Shown piece by piece: positions 8,364-46,645 of a stretch of DNA of 64,000 bases (position 1 is its first letter; the number at the start of each line of letters is the position of its first letter). Below the pieces are notes generated by a model that saw only the letters and a list, made by a program, of their open reading frames with translations, was not told the origin of the DNA and made no database searches. Position numbers and translations under genes: made by a program. Where the stretch lies: contig JBBTSM010000006.1 of NCBI GenBank assembly GCA_038064675.1, forward strand, positions 7,776 to 71,775, in the 5' to 3' direction. This DNA is from Patescibacteria group bacterium. GTDB taxonomy: Bacteria; Patescibacteriota; Patescibacteriia; UBA9934.

Positions 8364-9074
8364 ATGGCAAACATGAAATTTGGGCTTGTGGGACGGATTT
8401 TGACGATTCTTGCTGCAATCGTAGTAATCGTTGCTGGAATGGCGTGGATCGGTAATGCCCAAGACCGCGCAAAAGAACCACAAAAGCTCGAGGTCGCGGC
8501 CAATGACAATGACTGGTTTGAGGGTGGAAAAGATGCTTCTGTCGTGCTCGTCGAATATAGCGACTTCCAGTGCCCGGCCTGCGGCGCGTACTTCCCTGTT
8601 ATGAAAGGCCTTCAAGAGGCGTACGGCGACAAGCTCAAGATTGTCTACCGCAACTATCCGCTTGCCTCTATTCATGCAAACGCCCAACTCGCAGCACAGG
8701 CCGCAGAAGCTGCTGGCATTCAAGAACAGTTCTTTCTGATGCACGATCTGCTCTTTGGCAACCAACAAACATGGAGTACAGAAACCGACCCAACGAACAC
8801 CTTCATCGGCTACGCAACATCTATTGGTCTTGATGTTGAAAAGTTCAAAACTGACCTTACAAGCGATGAAGCATTCGAGTCCGTAAAAGACGACATTCGA
8901 AGCGGAGACAAATCAAACGTGGATTCCACGCCAACGTTCTTCTTGAATGGTGTGCGGATTGAGAAGAATCCCCAGGGCCTTGAGCCATTCAAGGTACTCA
9001 TCGATGCAGCCCTCCCGCCAACTCCGGTCGCCGATCCGGCAACATCGAGCATTGAAGTGACGACCACGCCGTAA
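8364..9074 (+). CDS. DsbA-like thiol:disulfide oxidoreductase (thioredoxin fold, CPAC active site), N-terminal membrane anchor
   Basis: VVLVEYSDFQCPACGAYFPVMKGL... Thioredoxin-fold CxxC motif after an N-terminal TM helix. Confidence 0.8.
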   Translation: MANMKFGLVGRILTILAAIVVIVAGMAWIGNAQDRAKEPQKLEVAANDNDWFEGGKDASVVLVEYSDFQCPACGAYFPVMKGLQEAYGDKLKIVYRNYPLASIHANAQLAAQAAEAAGIQEQFFLMHDLLFGNQQTWSTETDPTNTFIGYATSIGLDVEKFKTDLTSDEAFESVKDDIRSGDKSNVDSTPTFFLNGVRIEKNPQGLEPFKVLIDAALPPTPVADPATSSIEVTTTP

Positions 9075-24090: not shown

Positions 24091-24167
24091 TGGTGGGTCT
24101 GCCTGGACTCGAACCAGGGACCGGCGAGGTATAAGCTCGCTGCTCTAACCAACTGAGCTACAGACCC
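24091..24167 (-). tRNA. tRNA-Ile (anticodon TAT; AUA decoder), CCA encoded
   Basis: Acceptor GGGUCUG/CAGACCC, anticodon stem GCGAG/CUCGC with loop CUUAUAC, T-arm CCUGG-UUCGAGU-CCAGG. Confidence 0.7.
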
Positions 24168-26247: not shown

Positions 26248-26258
26248 TCTCATCAAAA

Positions 26259-26288
26259 CCCCGGCTCTCACGAGCCGGGGTTTTGTAT
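26259..26288 (+). terminator. Rho-independent terminator after rplS
   Basis: ccccggctc-tcac-gagccgggg perfect 9-bp hairpin followed by ttttgtattg. Confidence 0.8.
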
Positions 26289-26307: not shown

Positions 26308-27738
26308 CTAAAATGTGTGACAGAAGTATCCAGCCCCTAAGCTCGTACTCAATCCAAAGAAGTCCTTGAGCGCCTCGGCGACTGTTCGACTTGTGTCGCT
26401 TGCCGCACCCTCGTTGTACGCGCAGCGTGAAGCACCAAGCGCCGCCGCAACGCCACACGGGTCGGCGTTACATATCGTTTGAAGGAGCAATGCTCCGCCA
26501 GAGAAATTAATCGGAAGCTGCATGTATACCGGATCGGCTACATCCCCAATCTGCTGTGCAGAATATGCCATGTCCAAATCCTCATACACTCCACAGCCCC
26601 GCGGAACGCCCGCCGTGTCGCCGTCCTGCGTGGCGTCGAACAGGATACTTGGACAGCTAATGCCCCGCGCCGATGCCAAAGAATCTCCAGCCGTTGCACA
26701 ACTATTCAGGGTTGAATTAAACACGCAATACGTCGTGCCGCCGGACGCCGTATCATCAAGTGCGTTACACGAACTCGCTGTTGGGCTCGGAAGCTGTGCA
26801 CACGATTTGCACACACTCGTTTCGCCATCCTTCACGCAGACTTTCCCCGCATCAGCACCCGAACATTTTGTGTAATTACACACATCATCTTCCTTCCACG
26901 ATCCAATCGTCCCTTCCACCGGTGTTCCAGAGATCGTCCCCGTTCCACCGCAAGCCGCTGTTCCGGTTTTCAAGGCGACACTGTATCCAACATCGGCATC
27001 CGTTAAGCGCTCGCAGGAAGACTCCGCATCGAGAATTGTTACTTCCTTAATCATCGGGATACGCAGGGCGTTAAGTGCGGTGAGGCGTGGATCGATCAGG
27101 TTCAAGAGTACAAAGATACTCAGCAGAATAACAAGCCCAGTAATGGCGTTTGTAATGCGCTTCTTTGCCTTTTCAATGTACTTACTTTTTCCACGGGACA
27201 TAACGTACTGCAAACCACCGAGCATCATCATCACCACGGCAATAAGCGATGCCGCCGGCAAAAGCCACGTATAGATATCGTTGATGTATGTGGGAAGATT
27301 CGCAACTTCTGTCACACTGCCGATCGCCACGTTTAACGTGTATGGAGCGTCGTCTGCATAACAATATTTCTGCGGCAAGCTACTTGTTTTCGTCACCGCA
27401 CAGTCGTACGGCATGTCTCCCCCAGCCCAAGACGCACCGATCAATGTTGCGCCGCTGTATCCGCTCCATGATTCGCATTGATCTTGTGTCCAGCACTTTG
27501 GATTCCGATCGGGGTACTGCTGGGGATCGTTAAAACACCCAACAAATCGCGTATTCGTATCGATACACGTTTGCTGACAGGCACTATTCGTCATTTGATC
27601 CGCATCTACCGCGCCAGTCCCAGCCGATCCGCAAAAACATTCACACGTTGCTGCCGTCGACGCAAACGTGGCCTTTGGAAAAAAGGTAAGCAACGCCACG
27701 GCGGCGAGGGCAAGAAGACTACGTTTGACGCATGGCAT
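26308..27738 (-). CDS. cysteine-rich secreted protein with a central TrbC/VirB2-like two-TM hairpin
   Basis: 476 aa with signal peptide MPCVKRSLLALAAVALLTFFPKATFA. About 40 Cys in extracytoplasmic segments. Central TWLLPAASLIAVVMMMLGGLQYVMSRGKSKYIEKAKKRITNAITGLVILLSIFVLLNLIDP resembles TrbC/VirB2 pilin-like proteins. Confidence 0.5.
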   Translation of the reverse strand: MPCVKRSLLALAAVALLTFFPKATFASTAATCECFCGSAGTGAVDADQMTNSACQQTCIDTNTRFVGCFNDPQQYPDRNPKCWTQDQCESWSGYSGATLIGASWAGGDMPYDCAVTKTSSLPQKYCYADDAPYTLNVAIGSVTEVANLPTYINDIYTWLLPAASLIAVVMMMLGGLQYVMSRGKSKYIEKAKKRITNAITGLVILLSIFVLLNLIDPRLTALNALRIPMIKEVTILDAESSCERLTDADVGYSVALKTGTAACGGTGTISGTPVEGTIGSWKEDDVCNYTKCSGADAGKVCVKDGETSVCKSCAQLPSPTASSCNALDDTASGGTTYCVFNSTLNSCATAGDSLASARGISCPSILFDATQDGDTAGVPRGCGVYEDLDMAYSAQQIGDVADPVYMQLPINFSGGALLLQTICNADPCGVAAALGASRCAYNEGAASDTSRTVAEALKDFFGLSTSLGAGYFCHTF

Positions 27739-28495
27739 CGAGAATTTGGGTAAAGATGGTAAAAGGAATGGATCCTTCTACTTTCTGACCATTAAAGAAA
27801 AAGGTTGGTGTACCGGTAACACCCGCAGCTGCGCCGTCGGAACTATCCGCCGTTACATCGTTCGCGTAATAATCGGAATCCAAGCAACGCGCAAATTGAT
27901 CGCTATCCAACCCAAGTGTGTCGGCGATTCCGCTTAACGTCTCCACACCGAGCGGTTCTTTGCTCGCGAACACTGCATCATGATACTCCCAAAACTTTCC
28001 CTGCTCTGCGGCGCAACCCCCAGCTTGCGCCGCAATGGTTGCACCGGAGTGAAGTTCCTCCAACGGATAATTTCGGAATACAACGCGAACATCGTCCGGA
28101 TATTGTTTTGCAATGGCACGAACAATAGGAGCGACTTCCTGGGAATAGGGGCAGCCAAAATCGGCGAACTCCACAACCGTGATCTTTGCGTTCTTATTTC
28201 CAAGTGATGGGTCGCTCGCTCCAAGAAGCGATGCGGAATCCGTATTCGTCGCCGCCTTCGCCGCGAATGCCGTTACCGCACGAGTAAAGTTTGTTGTGGT
28301 ATATGCCAACGCCGGGTTAATAGAGCCGTCTCGAATTCCACGGTAAAAAGAAAACACCCGCCACGAAAAACCCAAAACAAGGAAAAGCGCAACAACAAAT
28401 CCAAACATACCCAAAAGACGCGCCGGAGACCACCGGTGTTTCGCTGGTGGCGGCGTCTGTACGGGAAGCATGTTTATTTCCTCAGTCTCCTCCAT
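27719..28495 (-). CDS. DsbA-like thioredoxin-fold oxidoreductase (CPYS active site), N-terminal TM anchor
   Basis: ITVVEFADFGCPYSQEVAPIVRA thioredoxin motif. Its 3' end overlaps the Cys-rich protein gene start by 20 nt. Confidence 0.7.
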   Translation of the reverse strand: MEETEEINMLPVQTPPPAKHRWSPARLLGMFGFVVALFLVLGFSWRVFSFYRGIRDGSINPALAYTTTNFTRAVTAFAAKAATNTDSASLLGASDPSLGNKNAKITVVEFADFGCPYSQEVAPIVRAIAKQYPDDVRVVFRNYPLEELHSGATIAAQAGGCAAEQGKFWEYHDAVFASKEPLGVETLSGIADTLGLDSDQFARCLDSDYYANDVTADSSDGAAAGVTGTPTFFFNGQKVEGSIPFTIFTQILDAMRQT

Positions 28496-28570
28496 ATCTG
28501 CCCGGATTATACCATAATGCGATGCACTGATCTTTACGACACAACCCCAATTTGGTATGCTTTCCGCACT

Positions 28571-38784: not shown

Positions 38785-40701
38785 TTATATCGACGCCTTC
38801 ACCGTTCCCTTCCCCGTTGTCAGCACATCGCCTTCACATTCGGTGGTCACGGCATCAGCTGATCGTTCGAGTACCGATCCTGTCATGTCGTCCTTGGCAT
38901 TCAAAACTGTTTTGCCGACCAATGTTTTTGCTAAACCAACATCGGCGGCAGTTGGCGTGATCGATACGCTGAATCGAGCAGTAACAGCCGCGGATCCTGC
39001 TGGAATACTCGACATGGTCCAACGAACGATTCGTGTTCCGACGTCGTACAACATCGATCCGCTCGTTGCTGTCGAAAAATCGTCCCACGTCACCCCTTCT
39101 GGAAGCGTTGCAGAAACCGTGATGGCATCCAAGCCATGCAAACCACTCGCAATCGTCCACGTCGCCCGATAATGCGTTGTACTCCCCGCCATTGGTGGCA
39201 GCGGACCGCTCCCGAGTGGTGCACCGTCGTCATCAAAGTATCGCAATGTACTGAGGATTGCGGCATCGGAATTGAGCTGTACTGTTAGTGGAGCAGACTG
39301 AACCGTTATCGCTCCTCGTGTGGCGCTAAAGGCAACGGAAAACGCGCTGCTCACCGCGGAAAGATCGAGCTTCATCGGAAACGCAAGGTCGAGCGTTTTG
39401 TGGCTGCCGGCCGCAACGGTACCGATCGTTTTCGCGTCGAATGTGATACCCTTAGCAGTCACCTTTCCGCCAGCAAGCACCGCAGTGCCCCAATCAATCG
39501 GCAAGTTGTCTTCCGCGGTAAAGTCGAGCAACGCTGTTGCATCGGCAATCGCTGTATCACTGGTGTTATCAATACGAAGCGCAATGCGGAATAACGATCC
39601 TGGATCTGCAACTACCGTTCCTTGTGATCCATTTCCAACCATGAGAAGCGACAACGCGCTTCCCTTCACATCGGTCAGCGCCGTTGTTGTAGTCTGCGGA
39701 GAAAATCGCGTGCCAGCAATGCCGCTCACCACAGTGAGCGTTTGCGTGCCCGATGCGTCAGATGCAAAGGCTCCGGTCACAACAATTGTGGATTCTGAAG
39801 GAATCGGGGCAACAGGCACAGCAGAAGCAACGGGCGATCCGTCGGTTGCAACGGAATCGGCGGCCGGTGCAGCCGGCGGAATGTCTGGCAATGTATAGGT
39901 TGGCGCTCCGCCGGCAGCCAATGGCGGCACACTCGTTTGCACAAAGAATCCCTTTGGTAACGTGAGCTTTACTTGTGGAGCAACAATCGTTTCTGTCCCC
40001 GCATTCTGTACATGGACGGTATACGTAACGGTTTCGCCAACATTTACTGTTTCTGGCGCGTCGATGGCGACAATCGTGGTGCTCGTATTCGTTGCGATTG
40101 TTTTCGTGACGATATCGTGGAACTGCGCATTAAAGTTTGCCGGCTGATACGACGCGAGCGCCTGAATACCAGTGGTACTTGGAACATCGGCATTCCAAAT
40201 ACCTTCGATGAGAATCTTTCCATCGCTCTTCCCAGAAATCGTTCCTAAATCAAACACCATGTCCGCAGCACTCGTCACCGCTGGCGTTGACGACTTCATA
40301 ACAAATCCCGCCGGCAAGTTCATATCAATCTCCACGTTCGTCAGCGGATACGATGTCTGATTCGCGTAGTCGAATTCGATTGTCGCATCAGCACCACTCC
40401 GCATATCATCCGAAGCAACAAACGCCATCGCCAAAGGCTTTCCTTGCTGTTCTGGACCAAAATAGCGCGAGTACACCACGTATCCGCCGAGCGTCAGCAC
40501 ACAAATCACCGTTAACGCCACAATCGCCCGAAGCAAAAATCGTGTGAGTCGAGACCCGCCCTTTGTTACCACCTTCAAGTCGTCGCGCTCGTCGCCGTAA
40601 ATCGCCGAAAGGCCAGCGCTGATGTCCGCCTCCATTTGTTGCGCAGAATCCTTTGGACTCCGAGCGTCCGCGCGATGCGAATGGCGACGTTTAGTGAGCA
40701 T
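38785..40701 (-). CDS. cell-surface protein with N-terminal TM anchor and DUF11-like (conserved repeat domain) beta-sandwich repeats
   Basis: 638 aa with TM LLRAIVALTVICVLTLGGYVVY. Repeats such as VTYTVHVQNAGTETIVAPQVKLTLPKGF; Thr/Ser/Ala/Gly-rich throughout. Confidence 0.45.
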   Translation of the reverse strand: MLTKRRHSHRADARSPKDSAQQMEADISAGLSAIYGDERDDLKVVTKGGSRLTRFLLRAIVALTVICVLTLGGYVVYSRYFGPEQQGKPLAMAFVASDDMRSGADATIEFDYANQTSYPLTNVEIDMNLPAGFVMKSSTPAVTSAADMVFDLGTISGKSDGKILIEGIWNADVPSTTGIQALASYQPANFNAQFHDIVTKTIATNTSTTIVAIDAPETVNVGETVTYTVHVQNAGTETIVAPQVKLTLPKGFFVQTSVPPLAAGGAPTYTLPDIPPAAPAADSVATDGSPVASAVPVAPIPSESTIVVTGAFASDASGTQTLTVVSGIAGTRFSPQTTTTALTDVKGSALSLLMVGNGSQGTVVADPGSLFRIALRIDNTSDTAIADATALLDFTAEDNLPIDWGTAVLAGGKVTAKGITFDAKTIGTVAAGSHKTLDLAFPMKLDLSAVSSAFSVAFSATRGAITVQSAPLTVQLNSDAAILSTLRYFDDDGAPLGSGPLPPMAGSTTHYRATWTIASGLHGLDAITVSATLPEGVTWDDFSTATSGSMLYDVGTRIVRWTMSSIPAGSAAVTARFSVSITPTAADVGLAKTLVGKTVLNAKDDMTGSVLERSADAVTTECEGDVLTTGKGTVKASI

Positions 40702-40704
40702 AGA

Positions 40705-43314
40705 TTACCGATTCAAAATCCAACCAGAGAACACATCGCGTGTGTTATCGAATACGGCAGTATCTGCGTCTTCTCCGGCAACGTTCGTCCAATACGTCTT
40801 AAACGTAGACGGATAATTGATATGCACCGTTGTTGCACGCGACACCACACCAGACTGCTTTTGCGCGAGCATGGAGTAGCCGTCGTGATTGTCGAATCCG
40901 AGCTGCCTGCGTGCACGAGCAAGGAACGACGTGTCCGAATCTTCGGAGAACAGCACTTGAGGGATGCGATAAGACACGTGAACAACCTGTGTCTCTCCCG
41001 GCGCAGTCTGCACCCAGCCGCCAAATACTGTTTTGCCAAACTCATTCCAAATATCCATGCCAGAAATCGCGTCACGCGTTTGGTTGCTCATCACAATCGA
41101 AAGATCGTCGTCCACACTCAATGGAATATCCGACAGCTCAAACAGATTCTGCGCCGGTGGCTCAAAACCGTCGGCAGAGAGTAATACGCTGCCTTCTGGC
41201 ACATAGAACCGCACATAATCCACGTTATTCTTTCCATTGAATAACGCATTCGCCATGCCGTGATGCGTCTTGGTGAGTGTAAGGTCGTCCACAATAGTGC
41301 CGGACTCGGAAATATTCACTTCAACATTCACCGCCTGGTCAATGACCGCATCCGTCTTACCACCACCGATATTTGTGTCCACAACCATCAAGTAATCACC
41401 CGCCGTCTGTTCAACGTTTCCGGTAAAGCCCAAGTCCTGCATCGCCTTCTGTGCATCGTTATCGCGGAAATACACCTGAATATCACGTTCAATAAGCCCC
41501 TGTTCAAGGAGCATCACAATCTTCACCAGCGTCTTCGCGTCGGCTGCTTTAATCTTCTCAATAAGTTTTGGTGCCATGTCGCCCAAAATCGCCTTTGGTG
41601 TGTTTTGTGATTTGTCTGCATCAATCTCGACAGCCTTCTCTGTCGCAAACAGGAAGTTCTCAGAATCGATCGTAAGGCCGTATTCTGACATTTCAATTGG
41701 CCCAACAATGTCCAGAAGTTTTTCAATGAACGTTGCGTTTACAGAAACCACACCGTCGGTGGTTGGTCCACCCGCATGCTCATAAAACCACTGCATCTTT
41801 TTTGCCGACGTTGGAAAATCTGGGAACCAGTTTCCGTCCTGAAACTCCCAACGAGGATTGATGAGCGATAACGGCTGTGGCGCGGCAACGAACGTATCGA
41901 GCTGCCCCTGCACGTCGTATGTGCCACCACCAGGGAGTCGCATGTTCGCGATAGCGCCATTATCCATGTCCACCTCCGCAAAGCTCCCCACAAAACCACC
42001 GGTCGGCCGAAGCTCTGTATTGTTTTGGAACAATGCGAGGTATCGCATTTTGCTCTCGCCGCCAAGGAGGAACGTCAGCGTATGCACAAATTTCAAGAAT
42101 TCCTGCATCGATGCCGCGATGGCTGGAGTTTCGGACTGCAGTTTTACAATCTTGTCTGTGTACTGCGCCGGAACAACGCTCGAATCAACCTTCGCGAGCG
42201 CCGCCTGAGCTGCCAACGCGTGAGGAAGCGCGTTTTCAATATACGCACCGAAAAGATTGAGCTTCGTGACGATGTCCGTCGATGATTGCGACGAAACACC
42301 GCTCCCCGCCTGCGTCATAATGGACGCAGTTTGCGACAACTCCTGACCAGCGGTCACCAAACCGCGCACCGATTCATACGTTCGATCTGTTTGCGGAATA
42401 ACGTTCACGATCGCCACAACACCAGCATGCAAATCGTTCAACGAATCTTGCGCGTCTGCAAATTTCGCTGCTGCTGCGGAGAAATCGGTCTGTGCTGCAC
42501 CAAAATCACGAACACTCAACGCAGACGTTGCGCGAGAAACGTCATCCAAGGCAGCAATGCCGATATTTTGTACCGTACCAACCTGATGTGCAGTGCCCGA
42601 AAGCGTTTGCATGGCGTGGAGTGGCAATACGACGACAAACGATAACATCACGAACGCTGCAAGAGCACGAACCGGCGCATGCTGTAAAAAGCCCCATTCA
42701 AACCGCAACACCTTCCGCATGGTAGACGACGGAGCACGATAGACTGGTGGCATTTCACGAAGAACAATCGGCGATGCAACAACCCATGGCGATAATGGTG
42801 TGCTAGAGGTAAATTGCTCTTCAGCGATCGATTCCAGAGACTGTTCCTCGATAACTTTCGTCATCGGCACCAATGCTTCGAGCGATACTGGCGCCTCGAT
42901 AAATGCGGCAAGCGCGTCGTCCAGCGAGATACTCGGCGCAGTCGATTTCGGAGAAATATATTTCGGTCGTGGTGCCTCTGTGCGTGGCATTACGGTATCG
43001 AATTCGCGAAGCTGACCGGAAATATCCGCGAAGTCAATCCCGAGATCTTCGTGTTCTGTAGTCGATTCCAGCGGAATCTGCTCATCGTCACCATCGATGA
43101 TGAGACTTTTTGCGAGCGCCTCAATCTCTTCAGCGACGCTCATCGGTGCACGCACAACGGCTTCATCGCGAGAAAGCTTCACAATATACGGCGACGGCTC
43201 CCCCGCACCCTGGTGGACGTGGAGTTTCTTCGCGTCGTCAGAACGGTGAATATCAGAAAACCGCTCAGGCAGAGCGTCATCGTACTGGTTCGTATTGTCG
43301 CGGCTCAGCTTCAC
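40705..43314 (-). CDS. large membrane-anchored extracytoplasmic protein, DUF4012-like
   Basis: 869 aa with one TM (LAAFVMLSFVVVLPLHAMQTL). Conserved-looking block LALFQNNTELRPTGGFVGSFAEVDMDNGAIANMRLPGGGTYD is recalled as DUF4012-like. Sits inside the glycosyltransferase cluster. Confidence 0.4.
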   Translation of the reverse strand: MKLSRDNTNQYDDALPERFSDIHRSDDAKKLHVHQGAGEPSPYIVKLSRDEAVVRAPMSVAEEIEALAKSLIIDGDDEQIPLESTTEHEDLGIDFADISGQLREFDTVMPRTEAPRPKYISPKSTAPSISLDDALAAFIEAPVSLEALVPMTKVIEEQSLESIAEEQFTSSTPLSPWVVASPIVLREMPPVYRAPSSTMRKVLRFEWGFLQHAPVRALAAFVMLSFVVVLPLHAMQTLSGTAHQVGTVQNIGIAALDDVSRATSALSVRDFGAAQTDFSAAAAKFADAQDSLNDLHAGVVAIVNVIPQTDRTYESVRGLVTAGQELSQTASIMTQAGSGVSSQSSTDIVTKLNLFGAYIENALPHALAAQAALAKVDSSVVPAQYTDKIVKLQSETPAIAASMQEFLKFVHTLTFLLGGESKMRYLALFQNNTELRPTGGFVGSFAEVDMDNGAIANMRLPGGGTYDVQGQLDTFVAAPQPLSLINPRWEFQDGNWFPDFPTSAKKMQWFYEHAGGPTTDGVVSVNATFIEKLLDIVGPIEMSEYGLTIDSENFLFATEKAVEIDADKSQNTPKAILGDMAPKLIEKIKAADAKTLVKIVMLLEQGLIERDIQVYFRDNDAQKAMQDLGFTGNVEQTAGDYLMVVDTNIGGGKTDAVIDQAVNVEVNISESGTIVDDLTLTKTHHGMANALFNGKNNVDYVRFYVPEGSVLLSADGFEPPAQNLFELSDIPLSVDDDLSIVMSNQTRDAISGMDIWNEFGKTVFGGWVQTAPGETQVVHVSYRIPQVLFSEDSDTSFLARARRQLGFDNHDGYSMLAQKQSGVVSRATTVHINYPSTFKTYWTNVAGEDADTAVFDNTRDVFSGWILNR

Positions 43315-45328: not shown

Positions 45329-46645
45329 TTGTATTTTCATTTACCCTTGGCAACAAAATCGGCTATCATTGTGGCATCTATGACGTTTCCAAAAGGTACG
45401 TTGGTGACATCGCTTTTTCTTGCGCTTCCCCTTGTACTCTGGCTCGTTGCCGAGCCACCCACTGCGTCGATTTCGTATCTTGGAAAAATTCTTGGCGTGT
45501 TTGGTTTTGCGGCATTCACCCTTGCACTTCTTTTAGCCATTCGCATCCCACTTCAAGAAAAAATCTTTGGCGATCTTGGTCAATCGTATCGTTTTCATCA
45601 GACAATCGGAACTCTCGCCCTCATGGCACTCGTGCTCCATCCGGTGTTTCTTGCGTGGCAGTACATTCAACTTTCATTCAAGGATGCCGCAGTTTTCCTC
45701 TTGCCTATCGGCGACCTTGCAAAGAACCTTGGCCTGTTCAGCCTCATCATCATGACCGTGTGCATCATTTGCACGTACTACATTCGTCTGCCGTATCACA
45801 TTTGGAAAAAGGTTCATCGGTACCTCGCACTCGCTTTTGTGTTCGGCGCAATGCACGGCGTCATGATTGGTGGCGATATTCAAACCATGCCACTCTTAAA
45901 GCTTTTGTTCATTATTTTCCTCGCACTTGGCGTTGTTGCCATTCTCTACCGAGTCCTCTTTAATCGTCTTTTTGTTCATCGAACACCATATGTCGTCAGC
46001 GGCGTGAATATCATCAATGAGAAGTTCGTTGATGTAACACTCACGCCAAAAGATCGTGGATTCGATCTAAAGCCCGGTCAGTTTGCGTACATCACCTACA
46101 TGAGTAACGGCGTGAAAGCCGAAGAACATCCATTCTCGATTGCAGGCTCCGGACCGAACGGATCGATTCGCTTCGTGACGAAGAAACTCGGCGACTTTAC
46201 CAACACACTTTCAAACATCGTGGTTGGCGACGAAGCGATGGTTGAAGGACCGTACGGAAGCTTTACGTATACCAGCGGAGGCAAAACTCAATGCTGGATT
46301 GCTGGCGGCATTGGCATTACGCCATTCCTCGCTTTCGCAGCATCGCTACCGGACGATTATCGCGCAACACTGTACTACGCAATCTCCGATGAAACTGAGA
46401 ATGCCGTCGCAAATGATCTCGCCGATCTTGCGAAACGAAAATCAAACCTCGATATTGTCGTGTGGAACAGCAAGGAAAAGGGATTTCTCACCGCGGCATC
46501 GGCGCTTAGCAAGCTCGACCCCGCATCAACCGACGTCTTCCTCTGCGGCCCAGGAGGCATGGTCAAAGCCATGCGTGATCAACTTTTTGCCCTCCACGTT
46601 CCCCACCACCACATCCACCAAGAAAAATTCAGCATGCTCCCCTAA
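45329..46645 (+). CDS. NOX/ferric-reductase-family membrane flavo-heme oxidoreductase (6-TM ferric-reductase domain + FAD-binding + NAD(P)-binding domains)
   Basis: TM helices carry paired His (HQTIGTLALMALVLHPVF; HRYLALAFVFGAMHGVM). FNR-like FAD domain (KPGQFAYITY...HPFSIAG) and NAD domain (CWIAGGIGITPFLAFA). Confidence 0.7.
   Translation: MYFHLPLATKSAIIVASMTFPKGTLVTSLFLALPLVLWLVAEPPTASISYLGKILGVFGFAAFTLALLLAIRIPLQEKIFGDLGQSYRFHQTIGTLALMALVLHPVFLAWQYIQLSFKDAAVFLLPIGDLAKNLGLFSLIIMTVCIICTYYIRLPYHIWKKVHRYLALAFVFGAMHGVMIGGDIQTMPLLKLLFIIFLALGVVAILYRVLFNRLFVHRTPYVVSGVNIINEKFVDVTLTPKDRGFDLKPGQFAYITYMSNGVKAEEHPFSIAGSGPNGSIRFVTKKLGDFTNTLSNIVVGDEAMVEGPYGSFTYTSGGKTQCWIAGGIGITPFLAFAASLPDDYRATLYYAISDETENAVANDLADLAKRKSNLDIVVWNSKEKGFLTAASALSKLDPASTDVFLCGPGGMVKAMRDQLFALHVPHHHIHQEKFSMLP

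Follow-up and report, generated by a model that had tools for sequence, protein, structure and literature searches.

We analyzed a 64,000-nucleotide stretch of contig JBBTSM010000006.1 from a Patescibacteria group bacterium (hereafter the window) and found that it carries a pair of overlapping genes encoding a 258-amino acid DsbA-like protein with a CPYS active site (hereafter the CPYS protein) and a 476-amino acid Cys-rich protein built around a VirB2-like helical hairpin. We are highly confident in the descriptive parts of this finding taken together, namely that the 476-amino acid protein is a member of the VirB2-like hairpin family, that its partner is a natural monothiol protein of the DsbA fold, and that the two form a conserved operon. 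Beyond this description, we give even odds to a functional picture in which a monothiol isomerase or escort is co-expressed with a disulfide-scaffolded, fast-evolving surface protein held by a VirB2-type anchor. An earlier note on this DNA, made without database searches, had proposed a Cys-rich TrbC/VirB2-like surface appendage served by a private DsbA-like oxidase.

Sequence reading and a hydropathy scan gave the 476-amino acid protein a Sec-type signal peptide ending in ...ATFA↓S, as the earlier note had proposed, and the cleavage consensus among its orthologues is VSFA↓A. The scan located two hydrophobic helices at about residues 155–181 and 196–220, and AlphaFold2 placed the helices of the hairpin at residues 148–180 and 185–215. 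The loop between them, SRGKSKYIEKAKKR, contains seven Lys or Arg among its 14 residues, in agreement with the central two-helix hairpin and short basic loop described earlier, and the N- and C-terminal domains flanking the hairpin are both net acidic. Because the loop is basic and the flanking domains are acidic, the positive-inside rule predicts that the loop is cytoplasmic and that both Cys-rich domains lie outside the cell, so that their cysteines are not expected in the cytoplasm, a location that would have counted against the earlier proposal. Two other classes of envelope protein were considered and rejected. A lipoprotein does not fit, as C3 lies in the n-region of the signal peptide, outside any lipobox; a type IV pilus prepilin does not fit either, as the N-terminus MPCVKRSLLALAAVALLTFFPKATFA↓S lacks the class III motif (G↓F/M-xxx-E) and the hydrophobic hairpin is central.

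The protein contains 27 cysteines, of which C3 belongs to the signal peptide, 10 to the N-domain and 16 to the C-domain. The earlier count of about 40 was therefore too high, whereas the extracytoplasmic placement held, with 26 cysteines in the ectodomains by topology. Cysteine accounts for 5.7% of the residues, as against 0.66% across 38 other proteins of the window, a difference not expected by chance (binomial P about 6e-17). When 37 orthologues were aligned, 24 of the mature protein's 26 cysteines proved invariant and the remaining two were merely alignment-shifted; the total per orthologue is 26–28 throughout. Mean identity to the window protein across these orthologues is 83% in the hairpin, 54% in the N-domain and 36% in the C-domain, where it amounts to 32% at non-Cys positions. 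Since the cysteines are invariant while identity is low in the C-domain and high in the hairpin, the protein appears to consist of a fixed disulfide scaffold that bears a fast-changing surface and is joined to a strongly constrained hairpin. The even number of cysteines in each domain leads us to expect intradomain disulfides, five in the N-domain and eight in the C-domain, or ~13 in total.

We used AlphaFold2 with the orthologue alignment to predict the structure of the 476-amino acid protein, which yielded a mean predicted local distance difference test (pLDDT) value of 78.7, with about 90 in the N-domain. The 37-orthologue profile had no match at E<=1 among all PDB sequences, nor did the isolated N- and C-domains in a Pfam scan at the same threshold, and a PHROGs search returned no match for the ectodomains. 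When the C-domain by itself was searched exhaustively with HMMER against 1.84 billion representative proteins, only 24 clusters were identified. In 21 of these, the proteins are 418–531 amino acids long and the match begins past residue ~155–235; the sole non-collinear match, P0201, was rejected as low-complexity noise. With so few clusters, nearly all collinear, in so large a set, the C-domain appears to be lineage-restricted and essentially confined to this architecture. Overall, both ectodomains seem to be without a known fold or family in the searches made.

The hairpin connects the protein to type IV secretion systems (T4SSs). Pfam matched residues 147–215 to positions 4–71 of the 71-position T4SS_pilin model (PF18895) with E=1.2e-11 and a score of 44.9 bits (cutoff, 26.6), whereas the classical TrbC/VirB2 model (PF04956) had no match at E<=1. 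The VirB2-like part of the earlier assignment was thus upheld, but not its extension to the classical family. The only NCBIfam match was a sub-threshold one to a mycoplasma 'pilin-like conjugal transfer protein', and an identical protein in NCBI, from a Patescibacteria metagenome-assembled genome, is named 'pilin'. Full-length relatives form about 49 clusters with 40–84% identity, and PF18895 is present in all 70 homologues. Elsewhere in Patescibacteria, a near-identical hairpin is joined to Peptidase_C39_2, NlpC/P60, Peptidase_C70 or Peptidase_M15_4 domains (P0051, P0059, P0065, P0067 and P0069). As the constrained hairpin is shared and the ectodomains vary, these results suggest that the hairpin may be a carrier or display module for diverse, partly cell-wall-degrading ectodomains. 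It could act as an anchor or as a docking element for a T4SS-like apparatus.

In Patescibacteria, PF18895 proteins are counted as VirB2 homologues and occur in 1,948 VirB4-positive assemblies, often as arrays (PMC12102498), and a VirB2-like array together with the T4SS is essential in Southlakia epibionticum, for which no pilus has so far been observed (PMC12857230). The 476-amino acid protein might be a true major pilin, with hairpins polymerising into a T4SS-type pilus coated by the two disulfide-rich domains. Such a role would agree with the PF18895 match above threshold and with a hairpin that is strongly conserved along with its basic loop, the element lining the lumen in known conjugative pili; reviews also hold that Patescibacteria T4SSs may build pili (PMC12857230). 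Nevertheless, we consider it improbable. The protein is not a small hairpin-only pilin, as its 476 residues comprise the hairpin and ectodomains of 120 (N-terminal) and 256 (C-terminal) residues, so each subunit would carry about 375 ectodomain residues. The sole conjugative-pilin chain among the structural matches, Aeropyrum pernix 8dfu_B, has 84 residues, and a rough estimate from published F-pilus geometry, not a computed value, leaves each subunit too little surface to accommodate two globular domains. A search with the hairpin Hidden Markov Model (HMM) revealed no second copy in the window, Pfam scans of 42 of ~63 candidate ORFs of the window detected no T4SS genes, and the sister proteins with peptidase-like domains fit display or anchoring better. 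The protein thus looks less like a homopolymeric pilus subunit than like a display protein.

The CPYS protein comprises an N-terminal membrane anchor (about residues 25–50), conserved juxtamembrane helices and a DsbA-fold domain. It matched Thioredoxin_4 (PF13462, 5.8e-26) and DSBA (PF01323, 1.8e-21) in Pfam, and its AlphaFold2 model reached a pLDDT of 89.1. The best Foldseek matches of this model were 3gyk, ScsC, Corynebacterium diphtheriae TsdA and DsbA, BdbD and BcfH, with a probability of 1.00 for 3gyk, ScsC, C. diphtheriae DsbA and BdbD. The active site C115-P-Y-S118, encoded as the earlier note had read it, is a monothiol site and not a CxxC dithiol; a selenocysteine at its fourth position was rejected, as the codon TCC specifies an ordinary Ser. 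Among the 120 closest homologues, roughly 100 show CxxS/T at this site (CPYS in 54, CPFS in 27, and others), so CPYS is not a sequence error. Position 4 is limited to Ser or Thr within the CxxS/T clade, all members of which share the transmembrane anchor and an extra Cys pair, and CxxC appears in distant relatives only. Among 42 aligned family members, the N-terminal active-site Cys is invariant (42/42), as is the cis-Pro loop G-T229-P230-T-F-F, in which the Thr preceding the cis-Pro is of the thiolate-stabilising kind (PMC2665069).

Such a site bears directly on function. CxxS sites carry no oxidising equivalents and are suited to disulfide shuffling, as in Eug1p (PMC2195995). Judged from its sequence, the CPYS site would be unable to store or donate an intramolecular oxidising disulfide, and the protein is for this reason not expected to be an oxidase at that site; the conserved CxxS/T makes 'oxidase' the weakest part of the first interpretation. 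The retained Cys, the Ser or Thr at the resolving position, the oxidising compartment and the presence of a separate oxidase would instead place it in the monothiol class. A redox-inert role is the other possibility raised by the loss of the resolving Cys across a large clade: the protein could be a chaperone or assembly factor like F-plasmid TraF, with a non-catalytic remaining Cys, and T4SS-linked thioredoxin-fold proteins that lack CXXC yet are needed for pilus assembly do exist (TraF; PMC11315126). We regard this as unlikely, since invariance of the active-site Cys, the cis-Pro loop and the preceding Thr would be unexpected in a redox-dead protein, and since position 4 is confined to Ser or Thr.

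The extra Cys pair, C161/C204, is nearly invariant and maps in the AlphaFold2 model to two helices that belong to the inserted helical domain. These two further cysteines, the presence of a VKOR homologue in the window and a sister module in which a true CxxC DsbA is paired with a paralogous hairpin protein (see below) would all be compatible with a CPYS protein that is still an oxidase, resolved by C161, C204, a VKOR cysteine or a cysteine of a second subunit. However, the pair is located on the inserted-domain helices, its spacing resembles that of the non-catalytic structural disulfide C140-C192 of Mycobacterium tuberculosis DsbA (PMC3792642), and the sister CxxC paralogue holds the same extra pair besides its own CxxC. 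Retention of the oxidase function is thus very improbable. By analogy with the M. tuberculosis enzyme, C161/C204 is best read as a structural disulfide and, because the paralogue has both the pair and CxxC, probably not as a replacement for the lost Cys.

A separate source of disulfides is encoded in the same window. The second DsbA, with a CPAC active site, and the VKOR homologue that the earlier note had placed at 8.4-9.5 kb were both recovered by Pfam and by the positions of their cysteines, with the VKOR gene directly 3' of the DsbA gene. The CPAC DsbA shares 35% identity with the CPYS protein. It is likely the disulfide source, and VKOR likely re-oxidises it. VKOR requires a quinone acceptor. 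Separately, an NOX/ferric-reductase-like flavocytochrome (Ferric_reduct, FAD_binding_8 and NAD_binding_1) is encoded at window positions 45329-46645 on the plus strand.

We then compared the gene pair across genomes; the GTDB species representatives that carry relatives belong to Candidatus Uhrbacteria. The CxxS DsbA-like gene lies directly upstream, on the same strand, in 10 of the 10 orthologous loci of species-representative genomes, and the pairing recurs in related loci L001-L004 and L031 and in the P0169 locus, so the DsbA-like gene, first noted for its overlap, proved to be a conserved overlapping partner. The 20-nt overlap, exact by open reading frame (ORF) coordinates in the window, is kept in most of the ten loci and is identical in L001-L003, L009, L010, L015, L016 and the P0169 locus (the last by called-gene coordinates). 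In the distant pairs (L004, L031 and the P0169 locus), the pilin-like protein is 31-34% identical and still has 23-27 cysteines.

The same Uhrbacteria genomes contain a second module, located between ClpB and RadA/RecG, in which a ~215-amino acid CxxC DsbA paralogue (CDAC, CDTC, CDSC and others) is paired with a hairpin protein of 440-490 amino acids with 10-19 cysteines, different from the 476-amino acid family (L007:9352-11431, L008:5357-7464 and L020-L030, all outside the window). The two genes overlap by 4 nt at 10 of 11 loci; the eleventh locus is truncated. The hairpin is 60% identical between the 476-amino acid protein and this paralogue (HMM E about 1e-40), the N-domains show weak similarity with a short CxCxC stretch (first ~33 positions), and the C-domains are unrelated, that of the second module having a weak Peptidase_M15/VanY resemblance with an HTSGIALD...WHFE motif. 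Possibly, it is this module that has been recorded in class ABY1 as a 'T4SS gene next to recG/radA' (PMC12102498). The occurrence of two independent operons, each combining a DsbA paralogue with a Cys-rich hairpin protein, argues for a foldase-client relationship.

Several observations weigh against the functional picture. At three loci of the same neighborhood (L005, L006 and L032), the CxxS DsbA-like gene is present and the pilin-like gene is cleanly gone, and L019 (5983-7377) encodes a pilin-like protein with 26 cysteines and no adjacent DsbA-like gene; the adjacency is thus not obligatory. No gene for VirB4, VirB6, VirB3 or a coupling protein was detected in the 64-kb window by Pfam scans, which covered 42 of ~63 candidate ORFs, including all ORFs of at least 400 amino acids. 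The families detected were aminoacyl-tRNA synthetases, NusA, YidC, bactofilin, glycosyltransferases, SecG and ribosomal protein L19, and the context is likewise a housekeeping one in all related loci examined. Among Uhrbacteria assemblies, some contain VirB4 and others do not (PMC12102498, Table S1). The lack of T4SS genes and a length far above that of pilus-forming VirB2 proteins also speak against the 'surface appendage' of the earlier note. Finally, as discussed above, the CPYS protein may have no redox activity or may rely on the thiol of a partner.

The flanking block, with tryptophanyl-tRNA synthetase (TrpRS), SBP_bac_5 and SecG on one side and rplS, cmk-like and rluD genes on the other, is kept with or without either gene. 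The states of this SecG/rplS neighborhood (both genes, DsbA-like only at three loci, pilin only at one) reflect repeated clean gene loss. L005 and L006 had first suggested an asymmetry, with the pilin-like gene depending on the DsbA-like gene and the latter able to occur alone; this was weakened by L019. In view of the DsbA-like-only loci and L019, the DsbA-like protein is a preferred partner and not the private or dedicated one of the earlier note, and there must be further clients for the CxxS protein. Retention of the block and the loss of either gene would also suit a purely historical adjacency, in which the DsbA-like protein is a general housekeeping envelope factor beside which a pilin gene was inserted with no functional link. 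This appears quite improbable to us: the 20-nt overlap and the shared promoter and terminator have been kept across deep divergence, and a second locus joining a DsbA paralogue to a Cys-rich hairpin protein, again with overlapping genes, is unlikely by chance.

The elements of the locus are listed in the table below. From these, the pair appears to be a compact bicistronic operon with its own extended -10 promoter and terminator, and it is chromosomal and vertically inherited in Candidatus Uhrbacteria (Patescibacteria, GTDB class ABY1, in which PMC12102498, Table S1, places Uhrbacteria). A strict two-hexamer consensus scan found no promoter upstream of the dsbA-like gene, and the extended -10 element was read from the sequence. 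The same TGnTATnAT pattern occurs at the equivalent distance (10-11 nt before the ATGGAGGAG start) in 12 related loci (L001, L003, L004, L009-L014, L016, L017 and L031). Because this element ends 10 nt before the dsbA-like ATG, the transcript is probably leaderless or has a very short leader. Translation could alternatively begin at Met9, behind a Shine-Dalgarno-like GAGGA (with GGAGG as the Shine-Dalgarno sequence). Direct RNA folding of the region between the stop of the 476-amino acid gene and the convergent rplS gave a perfect 14-bp stem flanked by A/U (-28.3 kcal/mol, z = -5.5). A consensus terminator scan did not call this hairpin, as its A/U-extended stem absorbs the T-run.

Table 1. 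Features of the gene pair and of the separate DsbA/VKOR pair (positions in the window)
Feature	Position	Strand	Remarks
dsbA-like gene, 258 aa	27719..28495	minus	ORF list; upstream gene of the pair
Active-site codons C115-P-Y-S118, TGC CCC TAT TCC	28142..28153	minus	Sequence
476-aa Cys-rich VirB2-like (PF18895) protein gene	26308..27738	minus	ORF, Pfam, homologues, alignment
Gene overlap, 20 nt	27719..27738	minus	Pilin-like ATG within dsbA-like 3'-terminal codons (...GATGCCATGCGTCAAACGTAG)
Signal peptide, residues 1-26	27661..27738	minus	n-region MPCVKR, hydrophobic core, TFA↓S cleavage-type site
Predicted N-terminal ectodomain, residues 27-146	27301..27660	minus	10 invariant Cys including CxCxCG motif
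VirB2-like helical hairpin, residues 147-220	27079..27300	minus	Most conserved part of the protein
Predicted C-terminal ectodomain, residues 221-476	26311..27078	minus	16 conserved Cys, acidic, fast-evolving
Extended -10 element TGGTATAAT	28506..28514	minus	Read from sequence; 10 nt upstream of dsbA-like ATG
Probable bidirectional intrinsic terminator hairpin AAAACCCCGGCUC-GUGA-GAGCCGGGGUUUU	26254..26285	both	RNA fold
Membrane-anchored canonical DsbA, active site CPAC	8364..9074	plus	Pfam Thioredoxin_4 5.5e-25
VKOR homologue, loop C37/C43, active site C115-Q-Y-C118	9078..9539	plus	Pfam VKOR 4.7e-27

Next, we compared the two proteins with known systems. The 476-amino acid protein shares with the VirB2-like pilins of Patescibacteria the PF18895 domain, the signal peptide, the two-helix hairpin with its basic loop, the phylum and the chromosomal location. 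Those pilins are described as small, often encoded in arrays of 2-11 genes, and near virB4 in 1,135 of 1,948 assemblies (Quinonero-Coronel et al. 2025, PMC12102498); they are also treated by Wang et al. 2023, as cited in PMC12857230. In contrast, the 476-amino acid protein is large, has two disulfide-rich ectodomains and is present as a single copy in the window, and its gene is coupled to a DsbA-like gene in a housekeeping context with no T4SS gene detected in the window.

In F-type T4SSs, the thioredoxin-fold proteins TrbB and TraF are encoded with the secretion system; TrbB is a disulfide isomerase for Cys-rich components such as TraN, with 22 Cys, and TraF has no CXXC, yet is needed for pilus extension (PMC11315126). 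However, these are periplasmic DsbC/thioredoxin-like proteins of diderm plasmids, whereas the CPYS protein is a membrane-anchored protein of the DsbA fold whose client would be the pilin-like protein itself. The TraF/TrbB profiles gave only insignificant matches to the CPYS protein (PF13728, E=0.089 and 13 bits against a cutoff of 23; NF010288, E=0.13 and 11.7 bits against a cutoff of 199).

ERp44 and AGR2 are, besides Eug1p, further monothiol proteins of the protein disulfide isomerase (PDI) family in the eukaryotic endoplasmic reticulum (ER). Like Eug1p-type PDIs, the CPYS protein has a natural CxxS site in an oxidising compartment, a setting for shuffling or mixed disulfides and for reliance on a separate CxxC oxidase (PMC2195995). 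It differs from the monothiol PDIs in that it is bacterial and membrane-tethered, comes from an unrelated branch of the thioredoxin superfamily and has a helical insertion of the DsbA type, and its function is a prediction from sequence.

The closest solved sequences and folds to the CPYS protein are monoderm DsbA oxidases that work with VKOR or BdbC (C. diphtheriae DsbA/MdbA, 4pwp and 5c00; Actinomyces oris MdbA, 4z7x; M. tuberculosis DsbA; Bacillus subtilis BdbD, 3eu3). MdbA is required for sortase-pilus assembly. Common to these enzymes and the CPYS protein are a monoderm setting and a membrane anchor at the N-terminus, with the VKOR of the window as a putative partner, and an extra non-catalytic disulfide is also found in M. 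tuberculosis DsbA (PMC3792642) and in Wolbachia alpha-DsbA1 (3f4t entry title). All of them are CxxC proteins, however, and their true counterpart in the window is the CPAC DsbA with VKOR, the CPYS protein being a derived paralogue. ScsC, Wolbachia alpha-DsbA2 and Salmonella BcfH are among the top structural neighbors and illustrate that the DsbA fold can be an isomerase, and BcfH is a Dsb protein encoded in a fimbrial operon. Unlike the transmembrane-anchored, monothiol CPYS protein, these three are soluble CxxC trimers.

Patescibacteria VirB2-like proteins, monoderm DsbA/VKOR systems, T4SS-linked thioredoxin-fold proteins and CxxS PDIs are already known. In the literature searched, the coverage of which is incomplete, we found no description of the pairing of a DsbA-like protein with a Cys-rich pilin, of the extended 26-Cys architecture, of a widespread Patescibacteria clade of CxxS DsbA-fold proteins, or of the duplicated operon design combining a DsbA paralogue with a hairpin protein.

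We propose the following mechanism. Both proteins would be made from one transcript and inserted in the membrane side by side, with the VirB2-like hairpin displaying the two ectodomains. Disulfides would be introduced through the CPAC DsbA/VKOR pathway, and the tethered CPYS protein would stay in the thiol state, as its intramolecular oxidation is impossible. Its single active-site cysteine could attack mispaired disulfides, or hold client intermediates as mixed disulfides, until all 13 native bonds have formed. The CPYS protein would thus be an isomerase or escort akin to the CxxS proteins of the PDI family, serving the neighboring 13-disulfide client as it emerges, along with other clients. 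The conserved hairpin may dock to, or oligomerise with, a Patescibacteria T4SS-like apparatus or other hairpin proteins, and the disulfide-braced, rapidly diverging C-domain would form the exposed surface that contacts the environment, a substrate or a host cell. For the 476-amino acid protein, a membrane-anchored form or a minor or tip component is likelier than a repeating pilus subunit.

A broader reading joins these elements, and we put it forward tentatively, as clearly less likely than not. Here, the undescribed large clade of CxxS DsbA-fold proteins in Uhrbacteria and related Patescibacteria would be the bacterial counterpart of the ER monothiol PDIs, made up of membrane-tethered, self-reduced isomerases or covalent escorts in a monoderm without a DsbC/DsbD pathway. 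Matched operons of a DsbA paralogue and its client would fold giant proteins that use the VirB2 hairpin for display on, or delivery through, an essential T4SS-like apparatus at the epibiont-host interface, and the hypervariable C-domain with its eight disulfides would serve host recognition.

Two further features of the window were recorded. ARAGORN called a tRNA-Ile with anticodon TAT at 24091-24167 on the minus strand. Decoding of AUA by a TAT tRNA is uncommon in bacteria, where the usual route is a lysidine-modified CAT tRNA. At 38785-43314 on the minus strand, two adjacent large genes encode proteins of 869 amino acids, with DUF4012, and 638 amino acids, with DUF11/CARDB-like repeats. They are surrounded by genes for GT4 glycosyltransferases and a Bac_transf priming enzyme, and the region is a probable locus for a surface layer or a cell-surface glycoconjugate.

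A considerable part of bacterial diversity belongs to Patescibacteria, the majority of which apparently grow attached to another cell. The small set of components with a demonstrated essential role in this attached lifestyle includes their VirB2-like proteins and T4SS. Our analysis suggests that large, disulfide-braced surface proteins are also built around the VirB2 hairpin, each with a Dsb partner of its own, and the locus supplies concrete candidates for proteins that contact a host. A further outcome is a natural CxxS variant of DsbA that is widespread. Should this variant be an isomerase, it would explain how proteins with many disulfides are proofread in monoderms without DsbC/DsbD, and it would offer a simple, reductant-independent isomerase for the production of disulfide-rich proteins.

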